Source of the DNA: an uncultured Candidatus Obscuribacterales bacterium
GTDB lineage: Bacteria; Cyanobacteriota; Vampirovibrionia; Obscuribacterales; Obscuribacteraceae
NCBI GenBank assembly: GCA_964607945.1
Contig: CAZSNX010000002.1
Span: forward strand, 1 to 35,372
Reading direction: 5' to 3'
Length of the DNA: 35,372 nt
Shown: in pieces, positions 11,109-35,372 of the stretch
Numbering within the stretch: position 1 is the stretch's first letter
Layout of the letters: each line of letters starts with the position of its first letter
Notes under the pieces: model-generated
Databases searched by the model: none
What the model saw: the letters and a program-made list of their open reading frames with translations, nothing else
What the model was told of the DNA's origin: nothing
Program-made: the position numbers and the translations under genes

Positions 11109-11133
11109 CTCTCGCAGTCTAATTGAGCGAGAG
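11109..11133. terminator. hairpin in the convergent gap between the GT87-like gene and lgt
   Basis: CTCTCGC-(11 nt)-GCGAGAG forms a 7-bp stem. Weak. Confidence 0.2.
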
Positions 11134-11168
11134 TTGAGAATTCCTGAATTTCAATTGCATTCAAGCAA

Positions 11169-11975
11169 TTAGATTTGAGCTTTATCCGGCGGCAAGCGGT
11201 ATTTCATAATCAGCGCCGCAGTCGCGCCAAGCGTGAATAAAAGGCAAATTGCGCTCACTAAGATTGGGGCAGGATAGCCAAATAGCAATATGCTGTCGAC
11301 TCTGAGCATCTCAATTAGAAGTCTGCCGGTTGAATAACACGCCAGGTAGACAAGAAAAGTAAGTCCGGGATAGCGGTGTAATTTGTCAGCCAGCAAGAAA
11401 TACAGGACTGAAAAAATAGTGAGATCCCAAAGCGATTCGTATAGAAAGGTCGGGTGGAAGAAATCGTAGTTAAGATAAGCTTCCGGACGATTCTCGGGTG
11501 GGATGTATAGTTTGATCGGAAATTCCGGTGGAACCGGGCGTCCGAAGGCTTCCGAGTTGAAAAAATTTCCCCAGCGACCGAGTGCTTGTCCCAGCGGCAA
11601 TACTATTCCGCCGATATCGAGAAAGGTCAGGATCGGCATCTTGTGCAGTTTTAGATAGATAATCGCCGCCAAAACTCCGCCAATTAATCCACCGTGAATC
11701 GAGCCGCCGCCCTTCCAGGTGGCCAGGATATCCTCGGGATGCGAAACAAACGAAGACCAGCTCAGAGCCACGAAATACAAGCGAGCTCCCAGCACTCCGC
11801 CAATGAAACTTACCAGCGCCGCATTGACGCATTTCTCGGAGTCGAGTCCCCAGCGCCTTGCTACGCGCGAAGCAAAGAAGGCGGCCAACAGAAAGCCTAG
11901 CGCGATCATCACCCCGTACCAGCGGACTGTCACCGGGCCAAATTGAAACAGGATCGCGCCGGGAGATGCAAACAT
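11169..11975 (-). CDS. lgt: prolipoprotein diacylglyceryl transferase
   Basis: 268 aa. VRWYGVMIALGFLLA, HGGLIGG and GRWGNFFNSEAFG are typical Lgt motifs. Confidence 0.9.
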   Translation of the reverse strand: MFASPGAILFQFGPVTVRWYGVMIALGFLLAAFFASRVARRWGLDSEKCVNAALVSFIGGVLGARLYFVALSWSSFVSHPEDILATWKGGGSIHGGLIGGVLAAIIYLKLHKMPILTFLDIGGIVLPLGQALGRWGNFFNSEAFGRPVPPEFPIKLYIPPENRPEAYLNYDFFHPTFLYESLWDLTIFSVLYFLLADKLHRYPGLTFLVYLACYSTGRLLIEMLRVDSILLFGYPAPILVSAICLLFTLGATAALIMKYRLPPDKAQI

Positions 11976-12089
11976 AATCAGTCGAAATCAGAGCCTTCCG
12001 GGAATGACAAAATTCCCGCTTCGTTGCCGGGCATCAAAGAAGTATAACGGAGGACTGGACTACCATTGGACAGCCAAGCACTTAGTTTA

Positions 12090-12115
12090 GCGACCAATCG
12101 CCGGCCGGCGGTCGC
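12090..12115 (-). terminator. GC-rich hairpin between the small secreted ORF and lgt
   Basis: GCGAC-caat-CGCCGGCCGGCG-GTCGC, with a perfectly palindromic inner 12-mer. There is no U-tract. Confidence 0.2.
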
Positions 12116-12169
12116 TCCGCGATCTTGATAATAGTTTCAGGTTAAGCAACGCTACGCTTGTCCGCGTCG

Positions 12170-12454
12170 CTAGGGAGTCGGTTGGGTAGGCTTGTTCTGC
12201 GCTTTTCTGTCTTCTTCGTCCCGATTGGCGGGAAGATTCGGGTCGTGATACTCGTCATGAGGATCGCCGCCACGGGGATTAGGACCACGCGGATTGCTGC
12301 CGTAGGGGCCTGGCGCGTAGGGATCATAAGGTAGATCGGCTATCAAGACGGCGTCATTCGTCGACGCCGGAGCCTCAGAGGATACAGTCTGATTCTTTAG
12401 AACCGGTGTTGAAAAGACTGCCGATGCGACAATCAACGGAACAATGACGTTCAC
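12170..12454 (-). CDS. small secreted hypothetical protein (Pro/Asn/Asp-rich)
   Basis: GTG start is preceded by AGGGAGGA at 7 nt. The N-terminus MNVIVPLIVASAVFS is hydrophobic. Short NPRG repeats are present. No family recognised. Confidence 0.45.
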   Translation of the reverse strand: MNVIVPLIVASAVFSTPVLKNQTVSSEAPASTNDAVLIADLPYDPYAPGPYGSNPRGPNPRGGDPHDEYHDPNLPANRDEEDRKAQNKPTQPTP

Positions 12455-12554
12455 AAGTTGGTCCTCCCTACTGCCTCTACCAGGCGCTTACGTTAGAACT
12501 CAGATCGACTCGTAGTCAAGTTAAAATAGGAAAGCTTTTTCGAGGGGAAATGTC

Positions 12555-20469: not shown

Positions 20470-21075
20470 CTAGCGCCTCCAGAACTGCCACCATTTTCTT
20501 GATCTGAACGCTTCCAGTTCGGATCGTGCTTCAGAAAGCATTTCAGCTAGTCTGGAGTTCTCTTCTTCGTTGACTCTCAGGAGCTCGTCCAGGAAATCAC
20601 AATCTACTTTTACTTTGGAAAGTGCATTGAGAAGATCGCGGCGCTCGAGTTGAGAGGCTTCGATATCCAATTCGAGCGATTTCAGTCGCTTGATTTCTTC
20701 TTCCAGCTCGGGAATTCTTTCGAGCGCAAAAGCTTGCGCTACCATGATCTGCTTGAGCGTGGAGTTTTGCTCCGTGAACTCCTGAAGCTTTTGAAGAACG
20801 GCAATCAGGCGCTTCTGCAGGTAAGTGTTCTCATGGTTGGCGCGGACAACTGCTTCCTGCTCTCTGAGCTTTTGCACGGCTTCCATTACTTGCCGGCGAA
20901 GACGTTGCTCTTTCGCGCGATTGACTCGAACATCCTCTCCGTCAGCCACCATCTCTGATGCCCATTTAAAGAGATCTTCGAGCCCTTCCAGAGCGATCGA
21001 ACTTTCGTGATTACTAAGGTTTCCAGGACCGGGATTAACGTCCCGTTTCATTGCAGAGATCTTGTGAGCTTGCAC
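20470..21075 (-). CDS. hypothetical coiled-coil protein with Trp-rich basic C-terminus
   Basis: 201 aa with heptad-like Leu/Glu/Arg/Lys composition, ending in RKWWQFWRR. The start is GTG 21075 or ATG 21051. It is divergent from the secretion-like cluster. Confidence 0.55.
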   Translation of the reverse strand: MQAHKISAMKRDVNPGPGNLSNHESSIALEGLEDLFKWASEMVADGEDVRVNRAKEQRLRRQVMEAVQKLREQEAVVRANHENTYLQKRLIAVLQKLQEFTEQNSTLKQIMVAQAFALERIPELEEEIKRLKSLELDIEASQLERRDLLNALSKVKVDCDFLDELLRVNEEENSRLAEMLSEARSELEAFRSRKWWQFWRR

Positions 21076-21443: not shown

Positions 21444-22178
21444 ATGACTAAGAAGAAACAGGCAGAACAAAAGAATTGCGGCAATCAGATCTTGTTTGCC
21501 GGCTTGGGTTTGGTTCTGGCTACTGTACCTTTTGCCTGTCCTGGCTCGTCTGTGCAAGCTCAGGGAATGCAGTCTCTGCGCAATCCGCTTATTCCGGGCG
21601 TGCCAAGCGCTGGCCCGATGGAACAAGCCCAGGAAGGCATGCCGCCGCCGCCGGGCGATGGCGATACTCCGATGCCGGTAACTCCGGGGCATGAAGGCAA
21701 CCCGTTGCCGCCGCCGTCGGCAGTGACCGTTCCGGCTACCAGCCCGCTCGACAAGAGTGAAGTCAACTCGGCTGTCGCACCATATTTGACGCCACCGCCG
21801 TCAACTCCCGGCCAGAACCCCGGCATGCTTCCCGGAACATTAAGCGGCTACAGACCGCCGGCACTGATGACTGAGGTGCAACCTCAAGGTGGTCTTCAAG
21901 GCAATGCACCGATCCATAAGTGGGATGGGCAGACGACCAGGGATTATGGTCTAGTCCGGCCGCGCGGTTCGCAATCGACCGACTTTGGGCGGCCGCTGGA
22001 TCAAGTATCTGTGGTTCGAACCAACAAAACCGAGGACGGGCCGCGTCCGATCGGGCAAAACGGGGCACCGATGCAGCCAAATCTGGGCGGTGCTCAACAA
22101 ACTTCAGACCTTTACGGCGCAAGGACTCTGTACAAAGGTGCGTACCTGCGTCCTGTCATGACTATTGCTCCTTATTAA
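21444..22178 (+). CDS. secreted Pro-rich protein, paralog A
   Basis: Signal peptide ends in VQAQG. The mature part starts with LRNPLIPG. It shares PPPSTPG..PG and STDFG.P blocks with the next gene and ends in ...TIAPY. Confidence 0.6.
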   Translation: MTKKKQAEQKNCGNQILFAGLGLVLATVPFACPGSSVQAQGMQSLRNPLIPGVPSAGPMEQAQEGMPPPPGDGDTPMPVTPGHEGNPLPPPSAVTVPATSPLDKSEVNSAVAPYLTPPPSTPGQNPGMLPGTLSGYRPPALMTEVQPQGGLQGNAPIHKWDGQTTRDYGLVRPRGSQSTDFGRPLDQVSVVRTNKTEDGPRPIGQNGAPMQPNLGGAQQTSDLYGARTLYKGAYLRPVMTIAPY

Positions 22179-22206
22179 CCCAGGCTTCCAGGAGGCCAAG
22201 TAAATC

Positions 22207-23175
22207 ATGTTGACCAAGATAATCACCAGGGTAGCAATCGGCTTAGCGGTCACCGCCGGAGTGTGGCACAGCGCAGGCTGTCAATCCGCCCACGCTCAAG
22301 GGTCGAGCACGCTGCGCGACCCGCTCATTCCTGGGGCTATCAGCTCCGCGCCGTTTTTCCCGGCCGCTGAAGGTCGACCGCCGGCTCCCGGCAGCGGACC
22401 CACGCCGGCACCGGTCATCCCCGGTCAGGGCGGGCCGCCGACGCTATTGCCCTGGATACCGGCTGTGCCGTCCAATCAGATCGATATCGGCTCGAGCGGA
22501 ATACCTCTACCATTTGGACCTCCGGTTGAAATGCCGCCGGGCGTGCTCGGTCCTTTGATGACCCCCTTTGTGCCTGCACCGCCCTCCACTCCTGGTGTAG
22601 ACCCGGGCATTTTGACCGTGCCGCCCTATGCTCAGACATTCAACCCATCGGCGCTGGCGCCGGTTGCTCCGCTCGGCGGCATTCCCGGTACCGGTGGTTA
22701 TAACACCACCATCCCGACAGTCCGTCGCGGCGGGCAGGAGACTCATCAGTGGGAGTTGCGCGGGCGCAACAGTTCGCTGATTGGCGGATTGGGCGACGGC
22801 AGCCAAGATCAAGTATCGCGTTTGGGTCCTTATACCGGTTGGGGCTTGCCGTTCGGCGTGCCGACCGGCAACGGGCTGCGCAACAACTCGATCGATCTAG
22901 GCGGCGGCATGCGCTTCGGTGGCGGTGAAGGTACGCCTATTTCAACCGGCTCATCCTTGCAGGATTTCGGCGACAGCGCCATGCGTAACGCTCCGATCCA
23001 GGGGCTGGGCGCTCAGCAGTCGTACGAATACGGGCAAGGCTGGCGCCGGATTCCGATGTACAGCAGCAAGTCGACTGACTTCGGCTTCCCCTACAAGCAG
23101 TTCAATGGCGCCAACATCGGCAACCAAAAAACAGGACAGCGCTTGAATCCTACCGCTGTGATCACCAACTTCTAG
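22207..23175 (+). CDS. secreted Pro/Gly-rich protein, paralog B
   Basis: AGGAGG RBS. The signal peptide ends in AHAQG and is followed by LRDPLIPG. It shares blocks with 21444-22178 and ends in ...AVITNF. Confidence 0.65.
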   Translation: MLTKIITRVAIGLAVTAGVWHSAGCQSAHAQGSSTLRDPLIPGAISSAPFFPAAEGRPPAPGSGPTPAPVIPGQGGPPTLLPWIPAVPSNQIDIGSSGIPLPFGPPVEMPPGVLGPLMTPFVPAPPSTPGVDPGILTVPPYAQTFNPSALAPVAPLGGIPGTGGYNTTIPTVRRGGQETHQWELRGRNSSLIGGLGDGSQDQVSRLGPYTGWGLPFGVPTGNGLRNNSIDLGGGMRFGGGEGTPISTGSSLQDFGDSAMRNAPIQGLGAQQSYEYGQGWRRIPMYSSKSTDFGFPYKQFNGANIGNQKTGQRLNPTAVITNF

Positions 23176-23182
23176 CCTGCCA

Positions 23183-23216
23183 GGGGGGATTCTCCCATTG
23201 CAGTGGGAATTCCCCC
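23183..23216 (+). promoter_or_regulatory. two-copy GGGAWTYCCCC motif (site A) upstream of gene 23294
   Basis: The sequence is GGGGGGATTCTCCC-N8-GGGAATTCCCCC. The ends of the two copies are 20 nt apart. A TAAGAT -10-like hexamer (23242-23247) lies 25 nt after the second copy. Confidence 0.45.
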
Positions 23217-23293
23217 GCTTTCCTCCAGCAGGCGCTTCTCGTAAGATTCCAGCATCGCTCCATCCCCAGGCAAACAAAATCGAAGCCACCAAA

Positions 23294-24079
23294 ATGAAAA
23301 CCCTCCTTCCCAATTCGAATAAGACAGTACGGACGCTAGCGTTCGTAGCTGCCACGGTTCTGTTGGCAAGCAGCAGTGTTGGTCAAGCAGCCAGCGCTCA
23401 GGGATATGCCAGCGGCCAGTCTAACTACTTTGCCTCGGCCGGCTCCGAGCAAGATTCGTTGTTGCCACCAGAAGTGGTGCCGCTGGATCCGGTCGCTGCC
23501 AATAAGCTAATGGAAAGTCAGGCGCAATCGAGAGCAGCCAATATCGATATTCCCGACATGCAATCGGCCCCTGGTATGGTCACGATGGACCAGCCTGGAG
23601 CCGGCATGCAAACCGCTCAAGATGCTCGCAAAGCGGCGTTCAACCAGTTGATGGGGCAGAACCAAGTCGCTCCGATCAACCGCTCGTATCAGCCGCAGAT
23701 GCCTGGCGGTCAGATGGGACCTGGCGGTTTCCCCGGCGCTCCTGGCGCCGGAAATCCGAATTTCCCCTATCAACCGCAAATGGCCAACAACTATCCCGGA
23801 CCGCAAGGCGGTGCGGGCGGGCAAACCGCTCAGTCCGGTTGGATGCAGCCCGGACAAGGTGGACAACAGACTCTTTCCGGTGGTGTGAAATACACCCAAC
23901 AAAGACGTGATATTCGCCGGGCCGGCTTGTCGAATGCCGTAAGTGCGGTCGCCGGTCTAGGCACGGGATTGTTCCTCGGCTCGCTGGTTTCGCGCTCTTA
24001 TTATTCGAACCCGGTCGGGCTCGGGATGATGGGGTTGGGAATGACGGGATTTGGCATACGAAATGGATTTAGGTTCTAA
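23294..24079 (+). CDS. secreted Gln/Pro/Gly-rich protein with C-terminal glycine-zipper hydrophobic tail
   Basis: I chose M33 of the track ORF: MKTLLPNSNKTVRTLAFVAATVLLASSSVGQAASAQG is a good signal peptide. The C-terminus is GLGTGLFLGSLV...GLGMMGLGMTGFGIRNGFRF. Confidence 0.6.
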   Translation: MKTLLPNSNKTVRTLAFVAATVLLASSSVGQAASAQGYASGQSNYFASAGSEQDSLLPPEVVPLDPVAANKLMESQAQSRAANIDIPDMQSAPGMVTMDQPGAGMQTAQDARKAAFNQLMGQNQVAPINRSYQPQMPGGQMGPGGFPGAPGAGNPNFPYQPQMANNYPGPQGGAGGQTAQSGWMQPGQGGQQTLSGGVKYTQQRRDIRRAGLSNAVSAVAGLGTGLFLGSLVSRSYYSNPVGLGMMGLGMTGFGIRNGFRF

Positions 24080-24083
24080 GCAT

Positions 24084-24806
24084 ATGAAAGTGATCATTCT
24101 CGCTCTAATAACCACAGCAGCCACCAGCGTTCTTGCAGTGCAAAGCGCGAACGCCGAGGGTCGCTCCGCCCGATTCGATTTCGCTCCCAACATGTGGAAA
24201 GTCGAAGGGGTGCGCGTGCCTCCCATCCAAGAAGCTCCGCATGCAGTCAAAAGCGGTGCCGTGCCTCATGGTGCAAGCTTCCTCGGTCTGTCTCCGCATA
24301 TGCTCACTAAGCCGGCGCCGGTTCATCAACCGGCAATGCCGCCGCAAGCGCAAACTCAAGTAGCGGCAAAACCGAGCTTCACTCGGACCGTACCGCAGAT
24401 AGCAGTGCCTAACACGCAATACAAGAACGAATTCGGCAAGGCCGGCAGTTTGAATCCACCGGTGGTGGCAAGTGCACCGCCTGCTGTTGCTCCGCCGCTG
24501 CCGCAGTCTGCCGGTCAGGCTCAATCGCTGCCGCCGATGTCGCAGCAAGCCGCACCGGCAAAGGCAAGCTATCCAGCCAAACCGCTAGTGGCTCACAATC
24601 GTACGTCCTCAGCCAGAAATGTGCACGGAGTGCTTAAGCATCGTAACGCACCGAGTGGGCTGGTTGCCGATGCCGGCAAGAGGATCGACAGTTATGGCAA
24701 CAACGGTTATGTTCCAGGTTCATTTCTCCCGGCCGCTTACACCGGCGATGGTTCAACTACTCAGACCGACGTACACGGTCGAGTCATGAGCCACAGATCG
24801 AAATAA
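24084..24806 (+). CDS. secreted Pro/Ala-rich protein
   Basis: ATG 24084 lies 4 nt after the upstream stop. Signal peptide is MKVIILALITTAATSVLAVQSANAEG. The body is Pro/Ala/Gln-rich and low in complexity. Confidence 0.55.
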   Translation: MKVIILALITTAATSVLAVQSANAEGRSARFDFAPNMWKVEGVRVPPIQEAPHAVKSGAVPHGASFLGLSPHMLTKPAPVHQPAMPPQAQTQVAAKPSFTRTVPQIAVPNTQYKNEFGKAGSLNPPVVASAPPAVAPPLPQSAGQAQSLPPMSQQAAPAKASYPAKPLVAHNRTSSARNVHGVLKHRNAPSGLVADAGKRIDSYGNNGYVPGSFLPAAYTGDGSTTQTDVHGRVMSHRSK

Positions 24807-24880: not shown

Positions 24881-25312
24881 ATGGTAACCAGCATTAAATC
24901 AACCAGCAAGAAGATTATGTCTTCTCGCGCCTTCAAGGTTGCCTGTCGCGTGGGATTTCTCCTGGCTCCACAACTGGTCCTCATGGCCATCGGTGTTTAC
25001 GATCAAGTAGCACATGCCCAAGGGCTGGTGGGAGCTCCAGTAGACCCCCGCTACGGGCAATCAAATGAAGTAGGTCAGATGGCCGACTTCGGATATGACA
25101 CCGCACGTGACATATCCCGGGTCGTGACCGCGCTTTCGACAATTCCGTCCTCGATGGCGGGAATGAAGATCGCTTTCGGTCAACGTGACGGTGGTGAATC
25201 CGCCATGAACGTAGCCAAAGGACTCGGTATCGGATTCGGTGGACCGACAGCGGTTCACTTGATCGGAACGTTCGCCATCAACAACTTCGGCGGACTCGGC
25301 GGCGGTCTATAA
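24881..25312 (+). CDS. small two-helix membrane protein, candidate VirB2/TrbC-like pilin
   Basis: Strong SD (AGGAGG, 7-nt spacer). A long leader ends in AHAQG. The mature part is about 96 aa with two Gly-rich hydrophobic segments (ISRVVTALSTIPSSMAGMKIAFG and GLGIGFGGPTAVHLIGTFAI) separated by a charged loop (QRDGGES). It sits immediately upstream of the VirB6-like genes. Confidence 0.5.
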   Translation: MVTSIKSTSKKIMSSRAFKVACRVGFLLAPQLVLMAIGVYDQVAHAQGLVGAPVDPRYGQSNEVGQMADFGYDTARDISRVVTALSTIPSSMAGMKIAFGQRDGGESAMNVAKGLGIGFGGPTAVHLIGTFAINNFGGLGGGL

Positions 25313-25493: not shown

Positions 25494-28400
25494 TTGGATT
25501 CAACAGTGTTAGCCGACACTACTTGCATGATTCAATTTCTCTATCGGCTCCTGTGCGCCAGGATTTTTGATTCGACGCGCTTGCCTGCACTTTCTACCTG
25601 TAGAGTCGAAGTAAGAAAGAGTTCTTCAAGCAGAGCCGGTCGTGCACTGCTTGTAATGTTCTTGTTGTTGGCACCATACATTCTTTTGTCCGGCGCCGCT
25701 CTCGCTCAAACCGAGCCGCCCCAGCAGAAGGCCGGCGATACGCTGCCGATCGGGGCAGGCGATCTCGGAGCCGGCGATGATCTTTCGCCCAAGGCCAGCC
25801 GTACCGATCCGACCTCGAAGTATTACACTGATTCGCGAGCCGACACCAACCTGGTGACTCAGGAAGCCGAACAGAACAAAAATGGCGTCACCGAGATAGT
25901 TACGGATATGCTGAAAGGGCAGCTCGGCGAATACAACGACGTTTATTGGGGTCAGCACCAGTTCTGGTCGGATGATATTGTAAGCAACCTCTTTTCGAAT
26001 ATCGGCCAGCTGATTGGAAAATGGCTGACTGAGTTCATCGATGGCTGGGTAGCTGATACCGTTCAGTTCCTGACAGCCTTCCTTAGAATCTTCGTGCTCA
26101 ATCCCAACATCGCCGTCAACGGTTTGAACGGCAACGGGCAAGATGACATCTCACCTTATATCCGTCAAGCTGCCGATATAATGTATGGCATTGCGGTCGA
26201 CCTGCTGCTTTTGCTCTTTATCCTTTGCATTTGGAAGTATTGGGCTGAAGCCTCTTGGCGAGGCGGCGGCAACCTGATGGGTGCGGTCGGCAGATTGATC
26301 TTCACAGCCGGGCTGATGCTGGCTTGGCCGACCATCTATGCATTCGAGATTCAAATCACCAATGAGATGATCAAGGCCATCTATTTCAATTCGGCCGATC
26401 AGGTCGTGATGCTGGATGCCGCTATGGCTGCCGCAGTCAAGGGAGGCTTGATGGCGACGGCCGGAGGGCTGGCTCATGCCTTCGCACCGGTAATCTTTTC
26501 AGTGGCAGGTGGTGCTCTCGGCGGCGGTGCCGGCGGTCTGGTTTTAGGCACTGTTGGTGATATCGTGTCGTTCGCCGGGTTGCTTATCTACACCACCTTA
26601 GGTGTGGTGCTGATTACCGAGTTGGTCTATTTCCTGGTGCTAAAGGCGATTCAGACAGCGCTTCTGGTCGCTCAATACATGTTTGCGCCGATTTTTCTGG
26701 TGTTCTTCGCCACTCCCGATACCGAGTCGGTGACTTCCGGATTCGTCAAAGCATTCGTTGAAGTCAGTCTCTGGAATTTCGTCTGGATTGGACTGCTCAA
26801 GATCATGGTGATCGTCTTGTATTCCGATTTCAATCCCTGGGGCAAGATTATTATGGCTGTGGGCATTCTGCAGATCATGATTCAAGTGCCGGGCTTCCTT
26901 TCCCGAGCTCAAATCAGCCCGATGTCCGATTTCATTTCGGCCGGCTTGATCTCCGGCAGCGTGCTCAACGGCTTCAAAGCTCTGGGAATGGCGGCTACGA
27001 AACGCACATCTCAGCTGTTCGACTACATGTTCAATCAACAATACGCCGCGCGCGGATTGACGCAATCTACCGGTGCTGTGATGGCGACTTTGCCGACTCA
27101 GGCTGCTGACCCCAAACTGCTCAATCAAATCAGAGCGGCGGCTGTCGGCAAGTCTCTCGATGGCAGACCTGATACCGGTCCGGGCCGTCCGCCGGCGGCT
27201 CGCGGTGATGGCGCCCATTCACTGGCTGCGCCTGGTTTGACCGGGCTCAATGGACAGCAGCCGGAGACCGAACAGCAGAAACAGGCCCGCCTCGAGCAAG
27301 AGCGACAACAAAAGGCGCAACAGTATGCGGCCGTTTTGGCAGCTGCCAGAACCGGTACCGGTTTGCCGGCTGGTACGCAGCCCGTTGCTGGCGCCGCCGG
27401 AGTACCACTTGATGCCGCTGGCGGTGCCGGTGCTAATCTCAATGCTACCCCCGGAGTTAGAAATAATCTGGCGGCCGGTGCACTAGTCGGCGCCAGCGCA
27501 GGAATGGCAAGAGCGCTTTCGGATGCCGGGCTTCATCGCGGCGTGACCGATCCGCTCACGACCAATGTCGCACACGGGCTGCAAGGTGCCGGTCAAGCTT
27601 TCGAGAAAGGTCTGGACGAAAAGTTTGCGCACGGTGGTGCCGAAGGCGATGTAATCAATCCGGCACAACGATTCAATCATGCCGGTTATAAGTTCGTGCA
27701 GGCGAAGATAGCTGCTGTCGATGCCCGTACGTATAACGGCAACAGCATCGGCTTTTCCGATGACGGTCAGAACAAACTGGTTGGTGATGGACGCGGCAAT
27801 TTGAGGCATATGCGTGCTCGCAAAGGCGCCTCTGCCGAAGAAGTCGCGCATTTGGTGCTGGCCGGCGGCTTTACTGAGCTGTTCAAGGACGATTCGGAAG
27901 CTTTCGATGCTGCCCGGCAATCGGCTATTGATTCAGGCGAAGATGGTCCGAAAGGAATGTTCGAACGCATGGGCGCAGGCTTCATGGCGCATCAAGGCGG
28001 AACCTTCAAGCAAACGGCCAGAGCCAAGGAGCGCTTCGCCAAGTCGCTATTCAAGCATGCTGCTCTGGGCGCCGAGTCTTACGTAAGCGGTAAGCCCGGC
28101 AATGCCTACACTGAATATCTAAGAACACGTTTCGGAGATTGGAGCGCCAAAGACGACACTTGGGGTACTCATATCTTGACCGATGCGGCGTCACCGGAAT
28201 CGCCATGGAATCCAAAGTATGTCCCAGCAACGGAAACCGTGTTCCAGTCAGGCTTGCCGATCAACAACCAGAACCGCGCGGCTGCCGCCAACCCGTATGT
28301 GATGAAGCTGCCGGCCTGGCAGCGTAGAGCTGGTATCGTTGCCGTCTCCGGTTATTTGAAACAATTGGCTGATGCTCAATATCCGGATGCCGACGACTAT

Positions 28401-29438
28401 GTGCGCGACGCGGCGATTGGTCGGATGTCGCAACAAGTGGGTAATTCGGAGGTCGAAGCGGCCTATGCAATTCAGGTCGAATCGAACGGAGCCGATGTCA
28501 GTGTTCCGATCGTGCAAACTGTCGCTCAATTGAGCGAAGATCCACGCTGCAAGGATGCGGCTTCGGCATATCTCAATCTGCGTTCGCTGGTCGCTCACTC
28601 GTCGGGTGGCGGCACCCGCCGCGGCAACATAACGATTCAAGCGATGCTGCGGGATAGCGGCGGTGGTGGCGGGTCAGCGGCGCCGGTGCATCCAGGAAAT
28701 GTCCATATCCCAACCATCAATTCGCCGCCTCCGGTAGTTCAGCAGGATGCCGATATCGAGATTGTCGGCGGCGGTGGCGGCAGCGCCGATGGCAATCAGC
28801 CGGTACAAAGGCTGAGTATGGATGTTCCTCTCAACAATTCCGGTCAACCGCAAGTTCACACTGATACTCGTGTTCACGGTGGTGGCGCCGGCGGTGGTGG
28901 CGGCGTGCTCAACCAGAATGTCGAAGTGGAAGTACGTGGTGTGGGCGGTCAAGGACAGGCTCCCACCATCAGCCAGGGCGATATCGCCGGGGCCGTTGCC
29001 GGAGCCGGAGTCAATACGAGACCGCTTTACATGGCTGCTCAGATGATGCTGGATATGTACAACGCCGGCTTCAACGATTCGCAGATTCAAGACCCGAAAG
29101 TAGCCAACATCGCTACTCACTATTACAGTCAGGGTCAACCGCATATGCTCAGCACAGTAGCTGTTGCCGCTCGCGTCCTTGGCAACAACGATGTAAGCGC
29201 AGGCACCGTGCAGACGATTCAAACCATGATTGATGCCGGTCACAATCCCAACCAGATTCAACGTCCGGATGTATGGACGGCGGAAGCTTGTATCGCCAGA
29301 CAGCTCTACCCGACGCCGGCACAGGTGCGCCGATGGAGGCTGGATGAGCGCTTCAGCCCGCACAGAGGCTCGATGCTGCCGCCGAATCTGGGACGCAACG
29401 ATGGCCGACCCGATCCGCCCCAACATCGTGGCTCCTAA
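25494..29438 (+). CDS. giant VirB6/TrbL-like polytopic membrane protein with ~800-aa C-terminal extension, paralog 1
   Basis: 1314 aa. The signal-like segment ends in ALAQ-TEPP. About 8-9 TM segments lie at aa ~230-500. LLLLFILCIWKYWAEASWRGGGNLMGAVGRLIFTAGLML resembles the first TM, loop and second TM of TrbL/VirB6. A low-complexity linker and a conserved soluble C-terminal region follow. The start is uncertain (TTG 25494, ATG 25527, TTG 25581). Confidence 0.7.
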   Translation: MDSTVLADTTCMIQFLYRLLCARIFDSTRLPALSTCRVEVRKSSSSRAGRALLVMFLLLAPYILLSGAALAQTEPPQQKAGDTLPIGAGDLGAGDDLSPKASRTDPTSKYYTDSRADTNLVTQEAEQNKNGVTEIVTDMLKGQLGEYNDVYWGQHQFWSDDIVSNLFSNIGQLIGKWLTEFIDGWVADTVQFLTAFLRIFVLNPNIAVNGLNGNGQDDISPYIRQAADIMYGIAVDLLLLLFILCIWKYWAEASWRGGGNLMGAVGRLIFTAGLMLAWPTIYAFEIQITNEMIKAIYFNSADQVVMLDAAMAAAVKGGLMATAGGLAHAFAPVIFSVAGGALGGGAGGLVLGTVGDIVSFAGLLIYTTLGVVLITELVYFLVLKAIQTALLVAQYMFAPIFLVFFATPDTESVTSGFVKAFVEVSLWNFVWIGLLKIMVIVLYSDFNPWGKIIMAVGILQIMIQVPGFLSRAQISPMSDFISAGLISGSVLNGFKALGMAATKRTSQLFDYMFNQQYAARGLTQSTGAVMATLPTQAADPKLLNQIRAAAVGKSLDGRPDTGPGRPPAARGDGAHSLAAPGLTGLNGQQPETEQQKQARLEQERQQKAQQYAAVLAAARTGTGLPAGTQPVAGAAGVPLDAAGGAGANLNATPGVRNNLAAGALVGASAGMARALSDAGLHRGVTDPLTTNVAHGLQGAGQAFEKGLDEKFAHGGAEGDVINPAQRFNHAGYKFVQAKIAAVDARTYNGNSIGFSDDGQNKLVGDGRGNLRHMRARKGASAEEVAHLVLAGGFTELFKDDSEAFDAARQSAIDSGEDGPKGMFERMGAGFMAHQGGTFKQTARAKERFAKSLFKHAALGAESYVSGKPGNAYTEYLRTRFGDWSAKDDTWGTHILTDAASPESPWNPKYVPATETVFQSGLPINNQNRAAAANPYVMKLPAWQRRAGIVAVSGYLKQLADAQYPDADDYVRDAAIGRMSQQVGNSEVEAAYAIQVESNGADVSVPIVQTVAQLSEDPRCKDAASAYLNLRSLVAHSSGGGTRRGNITIQAMLRDSGGGGGSAAPVHPGNVHIPTINSPPPVVQQDADIEIVGGGGGSADGNQPVQRLSMDVPLNNSGQPQVHTDTRVHGGGAGGGGGVLNQNVEVEVRGVGGQGQAPTISQGDIAGAVAGAGVNTRPLYMAAQMMLDMYNAGFNDSQIQDPKVANIATHYYSQGQPHMLSTVAVAARVLGNNDVSAGTVQTIQTMIDAGHNPNQIQRPDVWTAEACIARQLYPTPAQVRRWRLDERFSPHRGSMLPPNLGRNDGRPDPPQHRGS

Positions 29439-29688
29439 AATTAGCTAGCTGGCTCCGAAGAGTTCGGCAGAGCGGCAAGATGAGTGCTGCCAGCCGTTTT
29501 TGGCGCTCCGGCAATTGAGTTGTTTGACGTCGGCTTACATCCCTATGCCGAAATCGACGGAAGCCGATAGTCAAAATCGTGCACAATTACACACTTACCA
29601 AAGTCGCCGGGCGCAATAACATTTAACTGTTGTTCCCTCCAACAAAATCAAGACCGCTTCACAGGCGGTTGGGCTGGCTTGTGTTCTC

Positions 29689-32600
29689 ATGAATAAAAGA
29701 TGGAATTTTTACGCTGGCATCGTCGGCCGAACAGATAGCCGCTCCGGCTTGGCGTTGTGCGCGCTATTGCTCGTTTTATTACCTTACTTTTGCCTGATTC
29801 CAGCATCCAATTCGCAGACCGAGCCGCCGGAGTCGGGCAATGCTTCGTCAAACAGTGCAAATGCAGTCTTAGATGATGGTTTGTCCGAGCAAGCGAAAAA
29901 GACTGATGCTACTGCCCGCTATTTTACCGATGCCGATCTCGAAACTTCGCTGGTACAGCAAGCCGCCGAGCAAAACAAGACCGGTGTGATTGAAGAAGTG
30001 GAGCGCCTTTTAAGAGGGGAGCTCGGCGTATACAACGATACTTACTTCGCGCTCCATCAATGGTTTTCCGACGATTGGGTAAGCAATCTCTTTGCCAATA
30101 TCGGGCAATTGATCGGTAAGTGGCTGACGGAATTCTTGTGTGGCTGGGTGGCGGATACGGTCAGATTGCTGACTGCGTTCTTGAAAATTTTCGTGCTCAA
30201 TCCCAATCTACCTGTCAACGGGATGAAGCAAGACGGACCATCGGATGATATCTCCAAGATGGTCTGCCAAGCTACTGATGTTATGTATGGAATTGCCGTC
30301 GACCTGCTCCTGCTGCTTTTCATTCTCTGCATCTGGCGATTTTGGGCCGATGCGGCGTGGAAGGGCGGCGGCAATCTGATGGGGTCTGTCGGGCGCTTAA
30401 TTTTCACCGCCGGGCTGATGTTGGCATGGCCGACTATCTTTGCCTTCGAGATTCAAATCACAAATGAGATGATAAAGGCCGTCTACTTCAATTCGGCAGA
30501 TCAACTCGCTCAATTGGATGTCGCACTGGCAGCGGCGGTCAAAGGTGGGCTGGTAGCGACGGCGGCCGGTATTGCACAGGTATTTGCGCCGGTTTTAGGC
30601 GCAGCGACCGGCGGTGCGCTGAGCGCCGAGCTCGGCGGTATGGTGCTGGGCACCGTCGGCGATATCGTGGCCTATGCCGGGCTGATAGTTTTCACTATCC
30701 TGGGCGTCGTCCTGATAGCCGAAATAATGTATTTCCTCATATTGAAAGGGATTCAAACCGGGCTGCTTACCGCCCAATATATGTTTGCGCCAATTTTCCT
30801 GGTCTGTTTCGCTACCCCTGATACCGAATCGTATGCCTCCGGTTATGTCAAAGCGTGGATTGAGACGAGCTTGTGGACTTTCATCTGGGTCGGACTGTTC
30901 AAAATAATGGTGATCGTCATCTACTCGGATTTCAATCCCTGGGGCAAGATTATTATGGCGATCGGCGTTTTGCAATTGATGATTCAAGTGCCGGGATTTC
31001 TTGCCAGAGCAATGATATCGCCGATGTCTGACTTCATTTCGGCCGGTCTAGTTTCGGCGATGGCGTTCAAGGGGTTGGCTACTTTAGCCGGTGTCGGTGG
31101 AAAGGCGATGAATCGCTTCACCAAACAAGTGGCGGAGTGGCCGGCGCAGTATCCGCTCGTTTCAAAGGCGGCCGATCTGAACCGGTTGCCTACAAATGCT
31201 GCAGACCCGAACTTATTGGCTCAGTACAGAACGGCTTCTGCCGCCAAACCGATGGGAGCTGCCGGCACCGCCGGCTCACTGGGTGGTCCGGGCGCGGCCG
31301 GCGCCATCGGTAGCTCCGGAGCTGGAATCAATACCGGCACTGCAATCAACACTCAAAATGGTGCCGCTCAACCGGTAGCCGGTCAAACTGGTGCCGGATT
31401 TGCAGCCGGTGGGCAAATGACTGGCGTGCCGCAAAGAAGAGGCTCGCTTGGTGGCGTTGGGGCAAATCCGGCGTTGACTCCTGCCGGTCAGCCGGAAACT
31501 GAAGAGCAGCGTCAGAAGCGTCAGGAGATGGAAAGACTGCAAAAGGCCTCTAAATATGCTGCTGCTCTCCAGCAACAGAAGCAGGGTATAGTCACCGGCG
31601 GTTCAGCGCCGGGAACCGCAAACTTTGCCGCGGCCGGCGCGCTTACCGGAGTTCGGGCCGGACTGGGACGGACGCTCTCGCCGGCTGGTGTTCAGCGCGG
31701 AATGGTTGATCCCACTACAACCGGTGTTCCCGACGACGTGCAAGGACAAGATTTCATTTCAGCGGGGCTTGACAGTCTGCCCGGCTCGAATCAGCCTGAA
31801 AAGAAAGCCACATTCAATGCCGCAGAACAGCTCAATCAAGCTTATTACAAGTTCGTCCAAGGAAAGATAGCGGCGGTAAACGCTCGCACGTACAACGGCA
31901 ACAGTATCGGCTATTCCACCGATGGAAAAAACAAGCTTGTCGGTGACGGCAAGGGCAATCTCCGGCATATGCGAGCGCGCAAAGGCGCGACACCGGAGGA
32001 GGTGGCGCATCTGGTGCTGGCCGGTGGCTTCACTGAACTCATGAAAGATGATGCCGAAGCGCATGATGCCGCCAGAAATGCGGCGATTGACTCCGGTGTG
32101 CTGGAGCCTGAGCGATTGGGAAGACCGGGCGGGCTGTCCGAGCGGATAGCAGCCGGTTGGATCGGTTACAACGGCGGCAGCTTCCGGGAAACTGCCTTGG
32201 CCAAACAACGGTTCAATCGGGCGATGTTCGAACAAGCTGCCACCGGCTCAGAAGCTTATGTCAGCGGCCAGGAAGGCAATGCTTACACACAATATTTGCG
32301 CACTCGTTTCGGTGAATGGACGAGCAAGGACGACACCTGGGGTGTCCACATGATGACCGATGCCTCGATTGCGGCATCGCCCTGGAATCCTACCTACATC
32401 GCTGCCACCGACTCGATCCTGCAAGGCGGCATGAAGATAGATGAGCGGAATCGTGCCGCAGCCGGCAATACGCATGTTTTGAAACTGCCTGCCTGGCAGC
32501 GAAAGACGGCCATCCCGGCTGTGGCTGCTTACGCCACTCAGTTGGCCGAAGCGCAGTTTCCCGGGGCTGATTCTACAATCATCGACTCGGCGGTGCTGGG

Positions 32601-33450
32601 CCTGGTGCAGCACTTGAGCCCTCATGAAGTCTCGGCAGCCAATGCTATCTATCTGGAAGCTGGTGTGGAAGGGCTGTCGGTGCCGATGGTGCAGACAGTG
32701 GCCAATCTCTCCCGGCTGCCTGGCTCCGGCAGCGCTGAAGATGTGTACAAGAGCTTGCGCAGCACGATGAATGTGGTGACCAGTGCGCGACCGAGGAGCG
32801 CCGGCGGCAGTTCAACTGTTCGTGTCCTTTATGATGAAGGCGGCGGCTCAGCTCCACCCCCACCTCCGGCAATCGATGGCAACTTTATCGACGGCGGGCA
32901 TAGTGCAGCCGGTGTAACTGATATCGAAGTTCGCCCGCTTGGCGGGTCGCCCGGAGATTACAGTTCACCGGTGCAGGAAATTCATGTCGCCTCAGGCGGA
33001 GGCTCGTCTGGTGTAAGTGTTGGTAGATTTGATATGCCGCCGGCACAAAATGCCAATTTGATCGAGCGAGCCAGTCAGGTGGTGGTGCGCATGTATGACG
33101 CCGGCATGAACGACAAGCAGATACGCGACAGTCGGGTTGCCGATCTCGCTCATCATTTCTACGATAACCATCCGCACATGATGCATGCGGTTTCAGTGGC
33201 GGTGGATTGCCTGCCGCCGGGCGAATTGGATGTCGAGTCGGTCCATACAATAAATGATATGTTGAGCTCCGGTTACAACCCCGGTCAGATTCACCGCGCC
33301 GAAGTGGAGGTCGCTCGACGCTTCCGCGGTCAAAATATTGACCCCTCTCCGCGAGCTGTTGCCAGCTGGAGACAACGAGCTTACAATGATCCGACCATGA
33401 ACTCCGCTCCGCCGTCCCCACGCGGGCGAAAAGATCGAGTCAACCAATAA
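29689..33450 (+). CDS. giant VirB6/TrbL-like polytopic membrane protein with C-terminal extension, paralog 2
   Basis: 1253 aa and collinear with paralog 1. By-eye alignment gives 64/72 identical residues at 30289-30504 against 26187-26402, and 71/84 identical at 31846-32097 against 27687-27938. Confidence 0.75.
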   Translation: MNKRWNFYAGIVGRTDSRSGLALCALLLVLLPYFCLIPASNSQTEPPESGNASSNSANAVLDDGLSEQAKKTDATARYFTDADLETSLVQQAAEQNKTGVIEEVERLLRGELGVYNDTYFALHQWFSDDWVSNLFANIGQLIGKWLTEFLCGWVADTVRLLTAFLKIFVLNPNLPVNGMKQDGPSDDISKMVCQATDVMYGIAVDLLLLLFILCIWRFWADAAWKGGGNLMGSVGRLIFTAGLMLAWPTIFAFEIQITNEMIKAVYFNSADQLAQLDVALAAAVKGGLVATAAGIAQVFAPVLGAATGGALSAELGGMVLGTVGDIVAYAGLIVFTILGVVLIAEIMYFLILKGIQTGLLTAQYMFAPIFLVCFATPDTESYASGYVKAWIETSLWTFIWVGLFKIMVIVIYSDFNPWGKIIMAIGVLQLMIQVPGFLARAMISPMSDFISAGLVSAMAFKGLATLAGVGGKAMNRFTKQVAEWPAQYPLVSKAADLNRLPTNAADPNLLAQYRTASAAKPMGAAGTAGSLGGPGAAGAIGSSGAGINTGTAINTQNGAAQPVAGQTGAGFAAGGQMTGVPQRRGSLGGVGANPALTPAGQPETEEQRQKRQEMERLQKASKYAAALQQQKQGIVTGGSAPGTANFAAAGALTGVRAGLGRTLSPAGVQRGMVDPTTTGVPDDVQGQDFISAGLDSLPGSNQPEKKATFNAAEQLNQAYYKFVQGKIAAVNARTYNGNSIGYSTDGKNKLVGDGKGNLRHMRARKGATPEEVAHLVLAGGFTELMKDDAEAHDAARNAAIDSGVLEPERLGRPGGLSERIAAGWIGYNGGSFRETALAKQRFNRAMFEQAATGSEAYVSGQEGNAYTQYLRTRFGEWTSKDDTWGVHMMTDASIAASPWNPTYIAATDSILQGGMKIDERNRAAAGNTHVLKLPAWQRKTAIPAVAAYATQLAEAQFPGADSTIIDSAVLGLVQHLSPHEVSAANAIYLEAGVEGLSVPMVQTVANLSRLPGSGSAEDVYKSLRSTMNVVTSARPRSAGGSSTVRVLYDEGGGSAPPPPPAIDGNFIDGGHSAAGVTDIEVRPLGGSPGDYSSPVQEIHVASGGGSSGVSVGRFDMPPAQNANLIERASQVVVRMYDAGMNDKQIRDSRVADLAHHFYDNHPHMMHAVSVAVDCLPPGELDVESVHTINDMLSSGYNPGQIHRAEVEVARRFRGQNIDPSPRAVASWRQRAYNDPTMNSAPPSPRGRKDRVNQ

Positions 33451-33630: not shown

Positions 33631-33708
33631 GATTCACCGCGGAAGATGCCGGCCATACACTATGGACACGTGAATTGGAAGCCACTCACGGACTGGCAGG
33701 AACCCATT

Positions 33709-34407
33709 ATGCAAGTCATCAAAGAGTTTAGCGTTCAACCTACATCAGTGGTCTGTCCGGCCTGCAATTCAATCTTTGCCACCCCGGCGCTGGTAACGAT
33801 GCCGAATGTCACGCCCGAAACTTTGATCGAGGCTGACCTGCACAGGGTGTTGCCTGATGCGGCGATTCGAGCTGCGCTGGTGGCGATGTGTCCGGCTTGC
33901 AGCTATACCTGGTGGATTACCGCATTCAGACCACATCTATTTAAGCCCGGTCTGGTTCCTCCCACACCGATTATCGACAGTCCTAAGAAGTTTGCTCATG
34001 CCGTTTTGACCGGCAGACAAAACGGTGCTCACAGCTTGGACCTGGCACTGTTGGCGTTGAACGGATGCTGGTGTGCGCGCGAGGCCGGACAGCCTCACGA
34101 GCGCTGGCTGGAGCTGGCCGGAGCCGAACTCGAGAAAGCTTTGAGAGATGTCGAATGGAATGGCAATCGTAGCTACTATCACTATGTCATGGGTGAAGTC
34201 TGCCGGCAGTCGGGAGAGTTCAAAGGTGCGGTAAATCAGTTAAATCTGGTCGGACCAGAGTCAATGTTGCCGAAAGAATTAGTGGAACGCCAGAAGGTGC
34301 AGGCGATATCCGGCGATGCCAAGCCGGCGGCGCTGCCACCGCATCTGGTGGAGCTCCTTTTCTGTCCGAGAGTGAAGCAGCAAGAAAGTTTGGTTGCTGA
34401 GGAGTAG
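33709..34407 (+). CDS. DUF2225-like zinc-ribbon protein with helical (TPR-like) C-terminal part
   Basis: CPAC...(about 40 aa)...CPACSYTWW matches the split zinc-ribbon layout I recall for DUF2225. I prefer the start MQVIKEF (ATG 33709, AGGAA upstream) over ATG 33646, because 33646 lies upstream of the putative -10 element. Confidence 0.55.
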   Translation: MQVIKEFSVQPTSVVCPACNSIFATPALVTMPNVTPETLIEADLHRVLPDAAIRAALVAMCPACSYTWWITAFRPHLFKPGLVPPTPIIDSPKKFAHAVLTGRQNGAHSLDLALLALNGCWCAREAGQPHERWLELAGAELEKALRDVEWNGNRSYYHYVMGEVCRQSGEFKGAVNQLNLVGPESMLPKELVERQKVQAISGDAKPAALPPHLVELLFCPRVKQQESLVAEE

Positions 34408-34415
34408 CCGGAGAG

Positions 34416-34754
34416 ATGGAAGATATCACACCGCTTAATCTTGAAGATCAACCAAAGCTGTTCGGATTGCGTTACGACCAGCTGATAGCAATCCTGGCCA
34501 GCTTGATCGTATCGACGCAACTTTATTCTTGGCTCAACCCCGTTCCGTTCGCCGGACACGATCTCCGGTTGGACATTGCTATCCTGATCGGAATGATTGG
34601 TCCTATTTATGCACTATTCACCCTAAACAACTCGGCAGCACATTGGGAAAATGTACTGAATTTCTTTCTTTCATCGAAAGTCTATATTCCGGGACCGGAT
34701 CCAAATCCGAATCGTTTTCTTCTTGACGAAGAGCTAGTTGACTTCAGCGAGTAA
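34416..34754 (+). CDS. VirB3/PrgI/TcpE-like small two-TM type IV secretion component
   Basis: 112 aa. PKLFGLRYDQLIAILASLIV resembles the (F)(G/N)LT.RQL motif plus TM1 of PrgI/TcpE-type VirB3 analogs. A second TM is DIAILIGMIGPIYALF. It lies immediately upstream of the VirB4-like ORF. Confidence 0.55.
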   Translation: MEDITPLNLEDQPKLFGLRYDQLIAILASLIVSTQLYSWLNPVPFAGHDLRLDIAILIGMIGPIYALFTLNNSAAHWENVLNFFLSSKVYIPGPDPNPNRFLLDEELVDFSE

Positions 34755-34759: not shown

Positions 34760-35372
34760 ATGGTAGCTTCAATTTCAAGACAACGTGCTAAAGAGAGCAA
34801 CCTTCTAGGCTTCATGCGCCGGACGAAGATTGACTCCGCCGACAGTGTCGGCATATCCAAGCTGCCGGCAATGGCGGTGCCAAGACCGCACGGCTCTGCC
34901 GCCGGATTAATCCCGATCTGGGACCTCTTCCAGGATGACAATTCAGGTCTGGGGGTGATCGTCCTTAAAGACGGAAGCTATCGTTGCTGTTTTGAAGTCG
35001 ACGGCGTTCACGTGAGCGGTTTCGATGAAGTACGGTTGGTCTCCTTGATGAACCACTTTACCGGCTTTCTCAATTCGATCGACACATCCGTTCAGCTCAC
35101 GATCGTCTGTCACAACATAAGCAAGAGAGAATATTTCGCACGCCATCCGGTAGAGGTAATTGATGATGAGTTTCTCAAATACGTCGCACGCTCTGTTGAA
35201 AACGATAAAGCATTTCTTCTCTCCAAGAACTTCATTCCAGAGCTCAAGTTCTACGTCACTTTCTGCTATCGCCCCCCGCGCGAAAAGCCAGCCAAGCAAG
35301 GATGGCTCGAAAGCACGCTCAGCCACATTCAAGATGTCTTCACAAATCAAGCCGCACGTCAGACGGTCGGGC
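34760..35372 (+). CDS. VirB4/TraE-like type IV secretion ATPase, N-terminal fragment; runs off the window end
   Basis: My own translation from ATG 34760 (5 nt after the upstream stop) is open to the window end and is not in the ORF track. GLGVIVLKDGSYRCCFEVDGVHVSGFDEVRLVSLMNHFTGFLNSIDTSVQLTIV follows the N-terminal pattern of VirB4-family proteins (dG.y...levdg.n.....e......f..fLnsl....iq). Confidence 0.65.
   Translation, partial: MVASISRQRAKESNLLGFMRRTKIDSADSVGISKLPAMAVPRPHGSAAGLIPIWDLFQDDNSGLGVIVLKDGSYRCCFEVDGVHVSGFDEVRLVSLMNHFTGFLNSIDTSVQLTIVCHNISKREYFARHPVEVIDDEFLKYVARSVENDKAFLLSKNFIPELKFYVTFCYRPPREKPAKQGWLESTLSHIQDVFTNQAARQTVG

Follow-up and report, generated by a model that had tools for sequence, protein, structure and literature searches.

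We describe here a tandem pair of giant membrane protein genes, A and B, found in a 35,372-nucleotide stretch of DNA from an uncultured Candidatus Obscuribacterales bacterium (contig CAZSNX010000002.1 of the assembly GCA_964607945.1; the whole stretch is hereafter called the window). The reading of this pair that we favour, and consider reasonably probable as a whole, is that it encodes two divergent VirB6 proteins of a vertically inherited, atypical type IV secretion system (T4SS), whose long C-terminal extensions would form a platform in the cytoplasm. Extended VirB6 proteins as such are already known, and what is new and notable is a strongly constrained VirB6 extension of novel predicted fold, together with an uncharacterised T4SS that is spread over the whole order; no description of this system in the group was found in the literature searched. 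An earlier note on the window had proposed VirB6-type subunits with functional extensions exposed on the surface. On the whole the first part of that proposal is retained, with thin sequence evidence behind it, whereas the surface location is set aside, prediction favouring the cytoplasm.

Gene A occupies positions 25494..29438 (1314 amino acids as the maximal open reading frame (ORF), with a TTG start) and gene B positions 29689..33450 (1253 amino acids, ATG start), both on the plus strand. The true start of gene A probably lies downstream of TTG 25494, with ATG 25527 and TTG 25581 as candidates, because similarity to its orthologs begins near residue 37. The two proteins are collinear over their full length (48% identity in BLASTP, E = 0), in agreement with the earlier note, which had reported two adjacent collinear ORFs of 1314 and 1253 residues and suggested the pairwise alignment; every element of the module order that it gave was found. 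Each protein has a signal-like N-terminus (ending ALA/QTEPP in A and SNS/QTEPP in B), followed by an acidic N-terminal domain of approximately 150 residues, a hydrophobic module of 7-9 predicted transmembrane (TM) helices, a linker rich in Gly, Ala, Gln, Thr and Pro, a conserved soluble region of approximately 320 residues (SOL) and a small C-terminal module of approximately 120 residues (CT). In A, the conserved and presumably extracytoplasmic N-terminal domain (approximately residues 74-221; 25713..26156) stands after the signal peptide, and is followed by the polytopic TM module, the putative VirB6-superfamily core (approximately residues 222-476; 26157..26921), by SOL (approximately residues 720-1030; 27651..28583) and by CT (approximately residues 1176-1290; 29019..29363). 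In B, the signal peptide or N-terminal anchor (residues 1-43; 29689..29817) precedes an N-terminal domain, also predicted to be extracytoplasmic, with an invariant FVLNPN motif inside (residues 44-190; 29818..30258), the polytopic TM module with the invariant K353, P368-x-F370 and T377-P-D-T-E turn (residues 191-445; 30259..31023), the low-complexity linker (residues 501-699; 31189..31785), SOL (residues 700-1020; 31786..32748) and the helical module CT (residues 1115-1235; 33031..33393). No stop codon or frameshift interrupts either gene, purifying selection acts on both, and orthologs of each were found in other genomes; the pseudogene reading of A or B, which the earlier note had doubted, is thereby ruled out by the intact frames and the selection on them.

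The modules differ widely in their distribution over the family. A short helix of the pattern QPETE(Q/E)Q..R.E.ER.QKA..YAA, which in B is PETEEQRQKRQEMERLQKASKYAA in the linker (residues 602-625), is found in only 4 of 121 family members, namely A, B and the orthologs nearest to them, and CT is present in 40 of the 121 homologs. The linker ranges from approximately 200 to approximately 1000 residues, and therefore the proteins of the family range from 1000 to 2500 residues. An internal repeat suspected in CT was not significant, and a scan for promoters and terminators around the giant pair gave scores no better than those of shuffled sequences.

The C-terminal extension appears from its sequence to be a real, strongly constrained functional module, as the earlier note had supposed, because SOL is retained in 119 of the 121 homologs, has the lowest dN/dS (ratio of nonsynonymous to synonymous substitution rates) of any module and is modelled with a confident fold. 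The dN/dS values, whose calculation by module had been suggested, were obtained from ortholog pairs with the closest relative, locus L011, and not from A against B, because 48% identity means saturation. These values, which are approximate as dS is near saturation in the ortholog pairs too (0.9-1.7), are 0.002 in A and 0.018 in B for SOL, 0.035 in B for the TM module (for A a contig end leaves no value), 0.020 in A for CT (dS is saturated in B), 0.038 in A (last 63 codons only) and 0.126 in B for the linker, and 0.089 in A and 0.117 in B for the spacer, so that SOL at 0.002-0.018 stands against approximately 0.12 in linker and spacer. The AlphaFold2 model of SOL and CT together, built on a 25-sequence alignment, has a predicted local distance difference test score (pLDDT) of 79.7 and a predicted TM-score (pTM) of 0.72, with the two domains mostly above 90. 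SOL is predicted to fold as a small three-stranded sheet followed by approximately 15 helices, and CT as a helical bundle with pLDDT above 90. Foldseek, which the earlier note had proposed to run on the modules, returned nothing for this model in the PDB (best E = 2.1) or BFVD, and a model of the TM module was too poor (pLDDT 46) to be used in the same way. A profile search of the PDB with SOL was negative as well, and the predicted folds of SOL and CT are thus absent from the libraries searched. Permissive Pfam scans of all alignment members gave nothing recurrent for SOL or CT; these negative results count against the functional part of our interpretation, as does the near saturation of dS.

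Two more specific ideas about SOL were discarded. An "AYNGG"-like motif had raised the possibility of a lytic transglycosylase, but Foldseek would find a lysozyme-like fold. A disulfide was considered too and was ruled out by the absence of a covarying cysteine pair in SOL (Fisher p = 0.37), single cysteines being common.

The extension is likely to be cytoplasmic, in the N-out/C-in orientation of canonical VirB6, because the charge bias of the loops, the tails of short forms and the termini of fusion proteins all favour this topology. Loop L1 is positive, L2 has a net charge of -2.05 and L6 of -1, and past the last TM helix the charge is +1 to +2, with the strongest Lys/Arg cluster directly after that helix. 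Short members of the family that are without the extension end in short K/R-rich tails. Seven divergent members (P0427, P0435, P0460, P0470, P0472, P0481 and P0483) carry N-terminal VIT and VWA domains before the TM module and are without a C-terminal extension; these fusions, which start with a signal or anchor sequence, are a different decoration of the same membrane core. This prediction departs from the earlier note, where the extension was thought to be surface-exposed, target-contacting or effector-like: the positive-inside rule, the K/R-rich tails of the short forms and the absence of disulfide covariation all favour the cytoplasm.

An alternative that keeps the VirB6-like core is that the extension lies in the periplasm or at the surface, where it would bridge to the outer membrane or else contact or enter a target cell, in the manner of the C-domain of F-plasmid TraG or of the surface-exposed tails of VirB6-3 and VirB6-4 in Rickettsiales. 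Two observations that tell against our own topology speak for it. The stretch 316-357 can be read as one helix or two, and the hydropathy reading with eight TM helices gives a C-out protein with the extension in the periplasm; moreover, the extended VirB6 proteins of Anaplasma were found to be surface-exposed by trypsin shaving, their tails being accessible to the protease despite similar expectations (PMC7648143). It would also suit the periplasmic C-terminal domain of the F-type TraG protein, which acts in mating-pair stabilisation (PMC4027160), the lack of any detectable VirB7, VirB9, VirB10 or peptidoglycan hydrolase in the gene cluster, and the linkers rich in Gly, Ala, Pro and Gln, whose composition resembles that of four neighbouring secreted proteins. 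However, the strongest K/R cluster stands after the last TM helix, the extension-less short forms end K/R-rich, the cysteines of SOL do not covary, and in the hhalign alignment described below the register fits the final helices of TrwI, a member of a C-in family (the topology being that cited in PMC7648143). An extracytoplasmic extension is thus possible but unlikely, and we retain the cytoplasmic one.

The assignment of the TM module to VirB6, made in the earlier note, holds in part. A and B are very probably extremely divergent members of the VirB6/TrbL superfamily, as indicated by a bridging sequence, a profile alignment and gene order, whereas neither protein matches any VirB6-type model itself. 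A profile search of 1.84 billion representative proteins found 231 superfamily relatives, and one divergent member, P0477, matches the profile of the TM module, A1, with E = 1.4e-29 (residues 8-73, 91-191 and 220-259) and is 30% identical to the giant of locus L001 over 275 residues. The same protein scores 29.6 bits on the Pfam family TrbL, above the gathering cutoff of 25.9 (E = 7.4e-7, residues 39-174), in a region that overlaps its match to the TM profile; it was the only one of the 37 divergent members scanned to pass this threshold. A broad TM profile (73 sequences, effective number of sequences 5.4) was aligned by hhalign with TrwI over 109 collinear columns (TrwI residues 141-262) with a score of 26.3 (P = 0.018); reversed decoys reached 17.7 and 15.8 (P 0.25 and 0.4). 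This alignment pairs residues that are invariant in both families, namely K170 of TrwI with K353 of B, P181-x-F183 with P368-x-F370, and the Q-P-T turn of TrwI with the T377-P-D-T-E turn of B. In addition, the gene order, a small membrane protein, the VirB6-like, VirB3-like and VirB4 genes, is that of a CD1110-type element. Membership in PF04610 therefore comes through transitive homology via P0477, and is consistent with the predicted polytopic topology and with a T4SS cluster in which VirB4 stands near VirB3; A and B have no match to the family's hidden Markov model (HMM) of their own.

A number of results weigh against this assignment. A, B and all 19 close members have no match to TrbL (PF04610), TrbL_2 (PF19478) or TraG_N, even at E <= 10, and no match to the NCBIfam VirB6 models. 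The A1 profile misses the solved VirB6 chains among the PDB sequences, and a sequence search of the PDB with the giants gave no match except a compositional one to a designed helical repeat. The narrow TM profile compared with the TrwI family reached a probability of 0.5% (E = 0.11), and the AlphaFold2 model of the TM module, from a 19-sequence alignment, is too poor for fold comparison. The connection that the sequences draw is therefore a weak one, consisting of one bridging sequence and one alignment of hydrophobic helices at P = 0.018.

Could the TM module be unrelated to VirB6, being a lineage-specific transporter or anchor that works as a functional analogue, as proposed for TraY in MPF-I? 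The missing HMM matches and the negative narrow profile comparison would be explained in this way, and so would the confinement of the 231 representatives to one order and the occurrence of some members as orphans outside T4SS loci (L013, L030, L044 and others). Yet no transporter family was matched either, P0477 exceeds the curated TrbL cutoff in the region where it is homologous to A and B, the TrwI alignment pairs invariant residues and beats its decoys, and the position of the gene beside the VirB3-like and VirB4 genes is conserved. We regard an unrelated module as improbable and continue with the VirB6 assignment.

P0477 itself corresponds to the TM part of a divergent giant that in locus L012 is broken up into three ORFs. 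Two tandem divergent giants are present there (L012:4527-7502 and 9291-12474, on a 978-kb contig), each in three ORFs that correspond to the N-terminal domain, the TM module, and the linker with the soluble region, and no VirB4 gene lies within 10 kb; they are either pseudogenes or the products of indel errors in a long-read assembly.

The genes around the pair agree with a T4SS context, which the earlier note had proposed: the giants directly precede the VirB3-like and VirB4 genes, the second of which is cut by the window end, so that its first 194 codons are seen (34790..35372, plus strand; 89% identity to the L001 protein). A 135-residue minus-strand ORF (34943-35350) is almost certainly not a gene but spurious, because it lies within the frame that encodes this VirB4 N-terminus. 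The L001 ortholog carries the domains AAA_10 and P-loop_TraG. Its scores on the models for F-type TraC (167 bits), CD1110 (157 bits) and VirB4_CagE (126 bits) all stay below the curated NCBIfam cutoffs, and the identity of the VirB4 protein to those of plasmids does not exceed 25%; a VirB4-family ATPase, by which a T4SS is recognised, is present. Among annotated VirB4 proteins, the closest relatives are encoded on plasmids of Myxococcus and Deinococcus, in clusters that are equally unannotated, and the A1 and A2 HMMs match nothing in these, in R388 or in pCW3. Directly upstream of VirB4, in the VirB3/PrgI position, lies m112, a small membrane protein of 112 residues with two TM helices (34416..34754, plus strand). 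Between it and the giants is z253 (33646..34407, plus strand), a soluble protein with zinc-ribbon-like CxxC pairs (CPAC…CPAC) that is conserved in this place; its relatives have a faint match to DUF2225, and in several genomes the gene is duplicated (z233 z233).

Upstream of the giants, p143 (24881..25312, plus strand) encodes a pilin-like protein of 143 residues with a signal peptide, a helix, a charged loop and a Gly-rich hydrophobic helix. It has no match in Pfam or NCBIfam, and is the most conserved gene of the locus (96% identity between the window and L001); the median identity across the order is 86% for p143, 78% for VirB4 and 73% for MgsA. Tandem arrays of 2-4 copies of p143 occur in some genomes. 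It is preceded by four conserved cluster members that encode signal-peptide proteins rich in Pro, Gly and Gln (244, 322, 293 and 251 residues as maximal ORFs; 21444..24806, plus strand). The first two are paralogs with approximately 35% identity, and three of the four (21444-22178, 22207-23175 and 23198-24079) end in an aromatic residue, …TIAPY, …VITNF and …NGFRF respectively. Such C-termini resemble the outer-membrane β-signal, and these proteins may be candidates for the outer-membrane part of the system; no VirB7, VirB9, VirB10 or peptidoglycan hydrolase is recognisable in the cluster. The giants are its only polytopic membrane proteins.

The left two thirds of the window are filled by ordinary chromosomal genes, among them those for GlpD, sugar-nucleotide and glycosyltransferase enzymes, Lgt, RadA, UvrC, a YfhO-like protein and MgsA. 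A divergently transcribed gene (20470-21075, minus strand), which separates mgsA from the cluster, encodes a 201-residue coiled-coil protein, 67% identical to its L001 ortholog; it is kept at this position in approximately 40 species and might regulate the system or be one of its structural partners.

From position 21444 onward the ORFs of the window map one-to-one onto the cluster of the relatives. In loci L001, L003 and L005, mgsA and the divergent coiled-coil gene are followed by the genes for four secreted proteins, the 143-residue protein, the giant or giants, the zinc-ribbon protein (approximately 240 residues) and the 112-residue two-TM protein, and then by those for a VirB4-family ATPase of approximately 930 residues (AAA_10, P-loop_TraG and VirB4_TrbE_N), a protein of approximately 210 residues and a VirD4-type coupling protein of approximately 1000 residues with T4SS-DNA_transf and TraG-D_C domains, whose best model is the clostridial CD1115. 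The 210-residue protein, which has no family match (L001:18189-18821 and orthologs, outside the window), consists of a domain of approximately 150 residues preceded by a single TM helix and a short N-terminus, a topology that is also that of VirB8. A Replic_Relax protein is found at the distal end in L001 and L003 and is absent in L005.

The locus is read as an ancestral T4SS of the order, vertically inherited and fixed next to mgsA, and not as a recently acquired integrative and conjugative element (ICE), on the basis of shared gene order, co-divergence, base composition and the lack of an integrase. One genome per GTDB species was scanned, and the 80 loci returned were annotated. The same gene order was found in approximately 65 of these 80 species-representative loci, the order giant, z233, m112 and VirB4 in the window and approximately 50 of them, and at least 35 species had mgsA visible on the left flank. 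Almost all homologs of the giants come from metagenome-assembled genomes (MAGs) of Candidatus Obscuribacterales/Melainabacteria, and every one is annotated as hypothetical, without a Pfam domain. In Mantel tests of pairwise distances, MgsA was correlated with the N-terminal module of the giants (rho 0.61) and with VirB4 (rho 0.43; both p = 0.0005); these tests replaced a comparison of identities to a single reference, which was underpowered as a test of vertical inheritance and gave mixed results. Cluster genes and flanks have equal GC content at third codon positions (GC3), and no integrase, att repeat or tRNA boundary was found among the called genes of the window, L001, L003 and L005. That the cluster is a mobile ICE in which the giants are ordinary transfer genes, conserved through repeated insertion at a preferred site, is highly improbable: the coupling protein and Replic_Relax at the distal end in L001 and L003, the extra orphan copies and multiple loci of some genomes, and the RelB/YafQ genes inserted between the paralogs in L011 would suit it, but the lack of integrase and boundaries, the same flank in at least 35 species where an ICE would be patchy, the distances of components that co-vary with those of MgsA, the GC3 equal to that of flanking housekeeping genes and the absence of Replic_Relax in L005 do not.

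Members of the family were also seen outside any T4SS cluster (L013:10001-11323, L030, L044, L064, L083, L087 and L088). One of these orphans is a 440-residue short form between the leu and trp operons, and others are full-length giants that a MAG carries as its second or third copy. The typical Obscuribacterales cluster was found in addition in MAGs labelled Proteobacteria, Bryobacterales, Oculatellaceae, Drouetiella and Planktothrix (L018, L032, L043, L022, L037, L068 and L082), which are probably mis-binned or mislabelled assemblies.

The duplication that gave rise to A and B, as far as the sequences tell, is old, rare and retained. Giant A is the ortholog of the single giant of L001 (66% identity), to which B is 49% identical, and the orthologs of B are P0002, P0003 and P0004. 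A neighbour-joining tree places A and B in different clades, both of which contain orthologs from other genomes; the tree has no support values, which weakens this argument. A survey of related genomes for the same arrangement, as the earlier note had recommended, found the pair in few of them: tandem pairs are present also in L003 and in L011 (the MAG SW_5), and among the 80 species representatives SW_5 alone has two full giants in tandem. In this genome a RelB/YafQ toxin-antitoxin pair (L011:2629-3217) lies between the A and B orthologs, in the place of the 250-bp spacer of the window (29439-29688). In a different subclade one or two short paralogs that consist of the N-terminal module only stand upstream of the giant. 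Giant B evolves faster (84% identity to its L011 ortholog, against 94% for A), both paralogs are kept under purifying selection, and therefore sub-functionalisation is implied.

These elements would fit together as follows. The cleaved or anchored N-terminus would place the conserved domain of approximately 150 residues in the periplasm, and the module of 7-9 helices would form, with m112 and VirB4, an inner-membrane platform for translocation and pilus assembly, as VirB6 does in R388. The C-terminus would then return to the cytoplasm, where the disordered linker of 200-1000 residues would tether the globular SOL and CT; at the channel entrance, these would most likely serve the ATPases or the substrate as a platform for docking or regulation. 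A and B may enter mixed VirB6 assemblies, or may provide two alternative specificities for substrates or partners. The remaining components are the pilin-like p143, the VirB3-like m112, the deep-branching VirB4, the bitopic protein of VirB8-like topology and the VirD4-type coupling protein, with the four secreted proteins as possible outer-membrane components.

In comparison with known systems, the giants share with the canonical VirB6/TrbL proteins (TrwI of R388, 342 residues, and VirB6 of A. tumefaciens) the nature of a polytopic inner-membrane protein encoded near VirB3 and VirB4, the predicted periplasmic N-terminal side and cytoplasmic C-terminus, and approximately 110 collinear residues with a membrane Lys, a P-x-F and then a P-T turn, in a family one member of which passes PF04610. 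They differ in being 3-4 times longer and in having no direct HMM match, and they add Ala/Gly-rich helices, including TM3, which the TrbL-positive P0477 is without, as well as the N-terminal domain of approximately 150 residues and a C-terminal extension of approximately 750 residues with two folded domains.

The large C-terminal domain joined to a membrane region recalls the F-type TraG protein, in which a VirB6-like membrane region at the N-terminus is followed by a large C-terminal domain that has a function of its own (PMC4027160), and the VirB4 of the cluster scores best on the F-type TraC. However, TraG has its C-terminal domain in the periplasm, with roles in mating-pair stabilisation and entry exclusion, whereas a cytoplasmic location is predicted for the extension of the giants; there is no TraG_N match in the giants, and no other F-type component was detected. 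The Gram-positive TcpH of pCW3 (832 residues) and the CD1112/PrgH-type proteins (PF19478) have the same minimal gene order with VirB6-like, VirB3-like and VirB4 genes. TcpH also has a long C-terminal tail, the coupling protein scores best on CD1115, and the VirB4 score on CD1110 (157 bits) is close to that on TraC (167 bits). The differences are that the host here is diderm, that four secreted and possibly outer-membrane proteins are added and that no cell-wall hydrolase is detectable; the giants have no match to PF19478/CD1112, and the A1 and A2 HMMs miss TcpH and all other pCW3 ORFs. A homology search with CD1112 returned sequences of at least 88% identity only, useless as a reference profile, and the CD1112 family is covered by PF19478.

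In the Trw system of Bartonella, as here, both a pilin-like gene (trwL there; p143 in up to 4 copies here) and a VirB6-type gene (trwI, with several paralogs per chromosome) are amplified in tandem. Those VirB6 copies are of ordinary size, and the Bartonella system, which is not known to have a coupling protein and serves erythrocyte adhesion, differs in this from the present one, where the coupling protein is kept.

Lineage-wide chromosomal T4SSs are known as well from Patescibacteria, where a divergent system related to the monoderm conjugation machinery has a VirB6 often too divergent to detect (PMC12102498); that phylum has another cell envelope, and no giant VirB6 with folded C-terminal domains was reported from it. 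Within the wider lineage of the host, the Vampirovibrio T4SS of Soo et al. was described as an A. tumefaciens-like conjugative system. Eight MPF classes of T4SS were defined by Guglielmini et al. (PMC4027160), and it may be asked whether the present system is a ninth lineage, a domesticated core organelle and not a conjugation device, in which SOL and CT form a functional module without counterpart in the described systems. We consider this doubtful. If it were true, SOL and CT would be an enzymatic or gating domain that controls channel entry or, alternatively, a cargo released through the channel, as proposed for the rickettsial VirB6 tails, and the paralogs A and B would give two specificities. 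The system is in any case an order-wide, chromosomally fixed T4SS with a very divergent VirB4 in free-living, non-photosynthetic relatives of Cyanobacteria, and its candidate pilin p143 is more conserved than adjacent housekeeping genes, which points to a conserved cellular role, for example in DNA exchange, contact-dependent interaction or adhesion.

The closest parallel in arrangement is found in Rickettsiales, where tandem virB6 genes (VirB6-1 to -4 of Anaplasma, RvhB6a-e of Rickettsia) stand beside virB3 and virB4, encode long hydrophilic C-terminal extensions and are accompanied by an amplified pilin gene (PMC7648143). A vertically inherited chromosomal T4SS, tandem copies, an amplified pilin and long extensions are thus common to both. 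The rickettsial proteins, however, are 4-5 tandem copies of a recognisable VirB6 in an MPF-T system, with tails that are repeat-rich, strain-variable and reported to be surface-exposed, whereas the giants are two PF04610-negative copies, paired in few species, whose conserved tails comprise two non-repetitive globular domains under very strong purifying selection and are predicted to be cytoplasmic. VirB6 is the least understood core subunit of the T4SS, and the tails of its extended forms, in Rickettsiales, F TraG and TcpH, are poorly explained. In the giants the tail consists of two domains that fold confidently in the models and are the most constrained of the protein, instead of a variable repeat array, and it would thus be a clean target for studying the function of VirB6 extensions.

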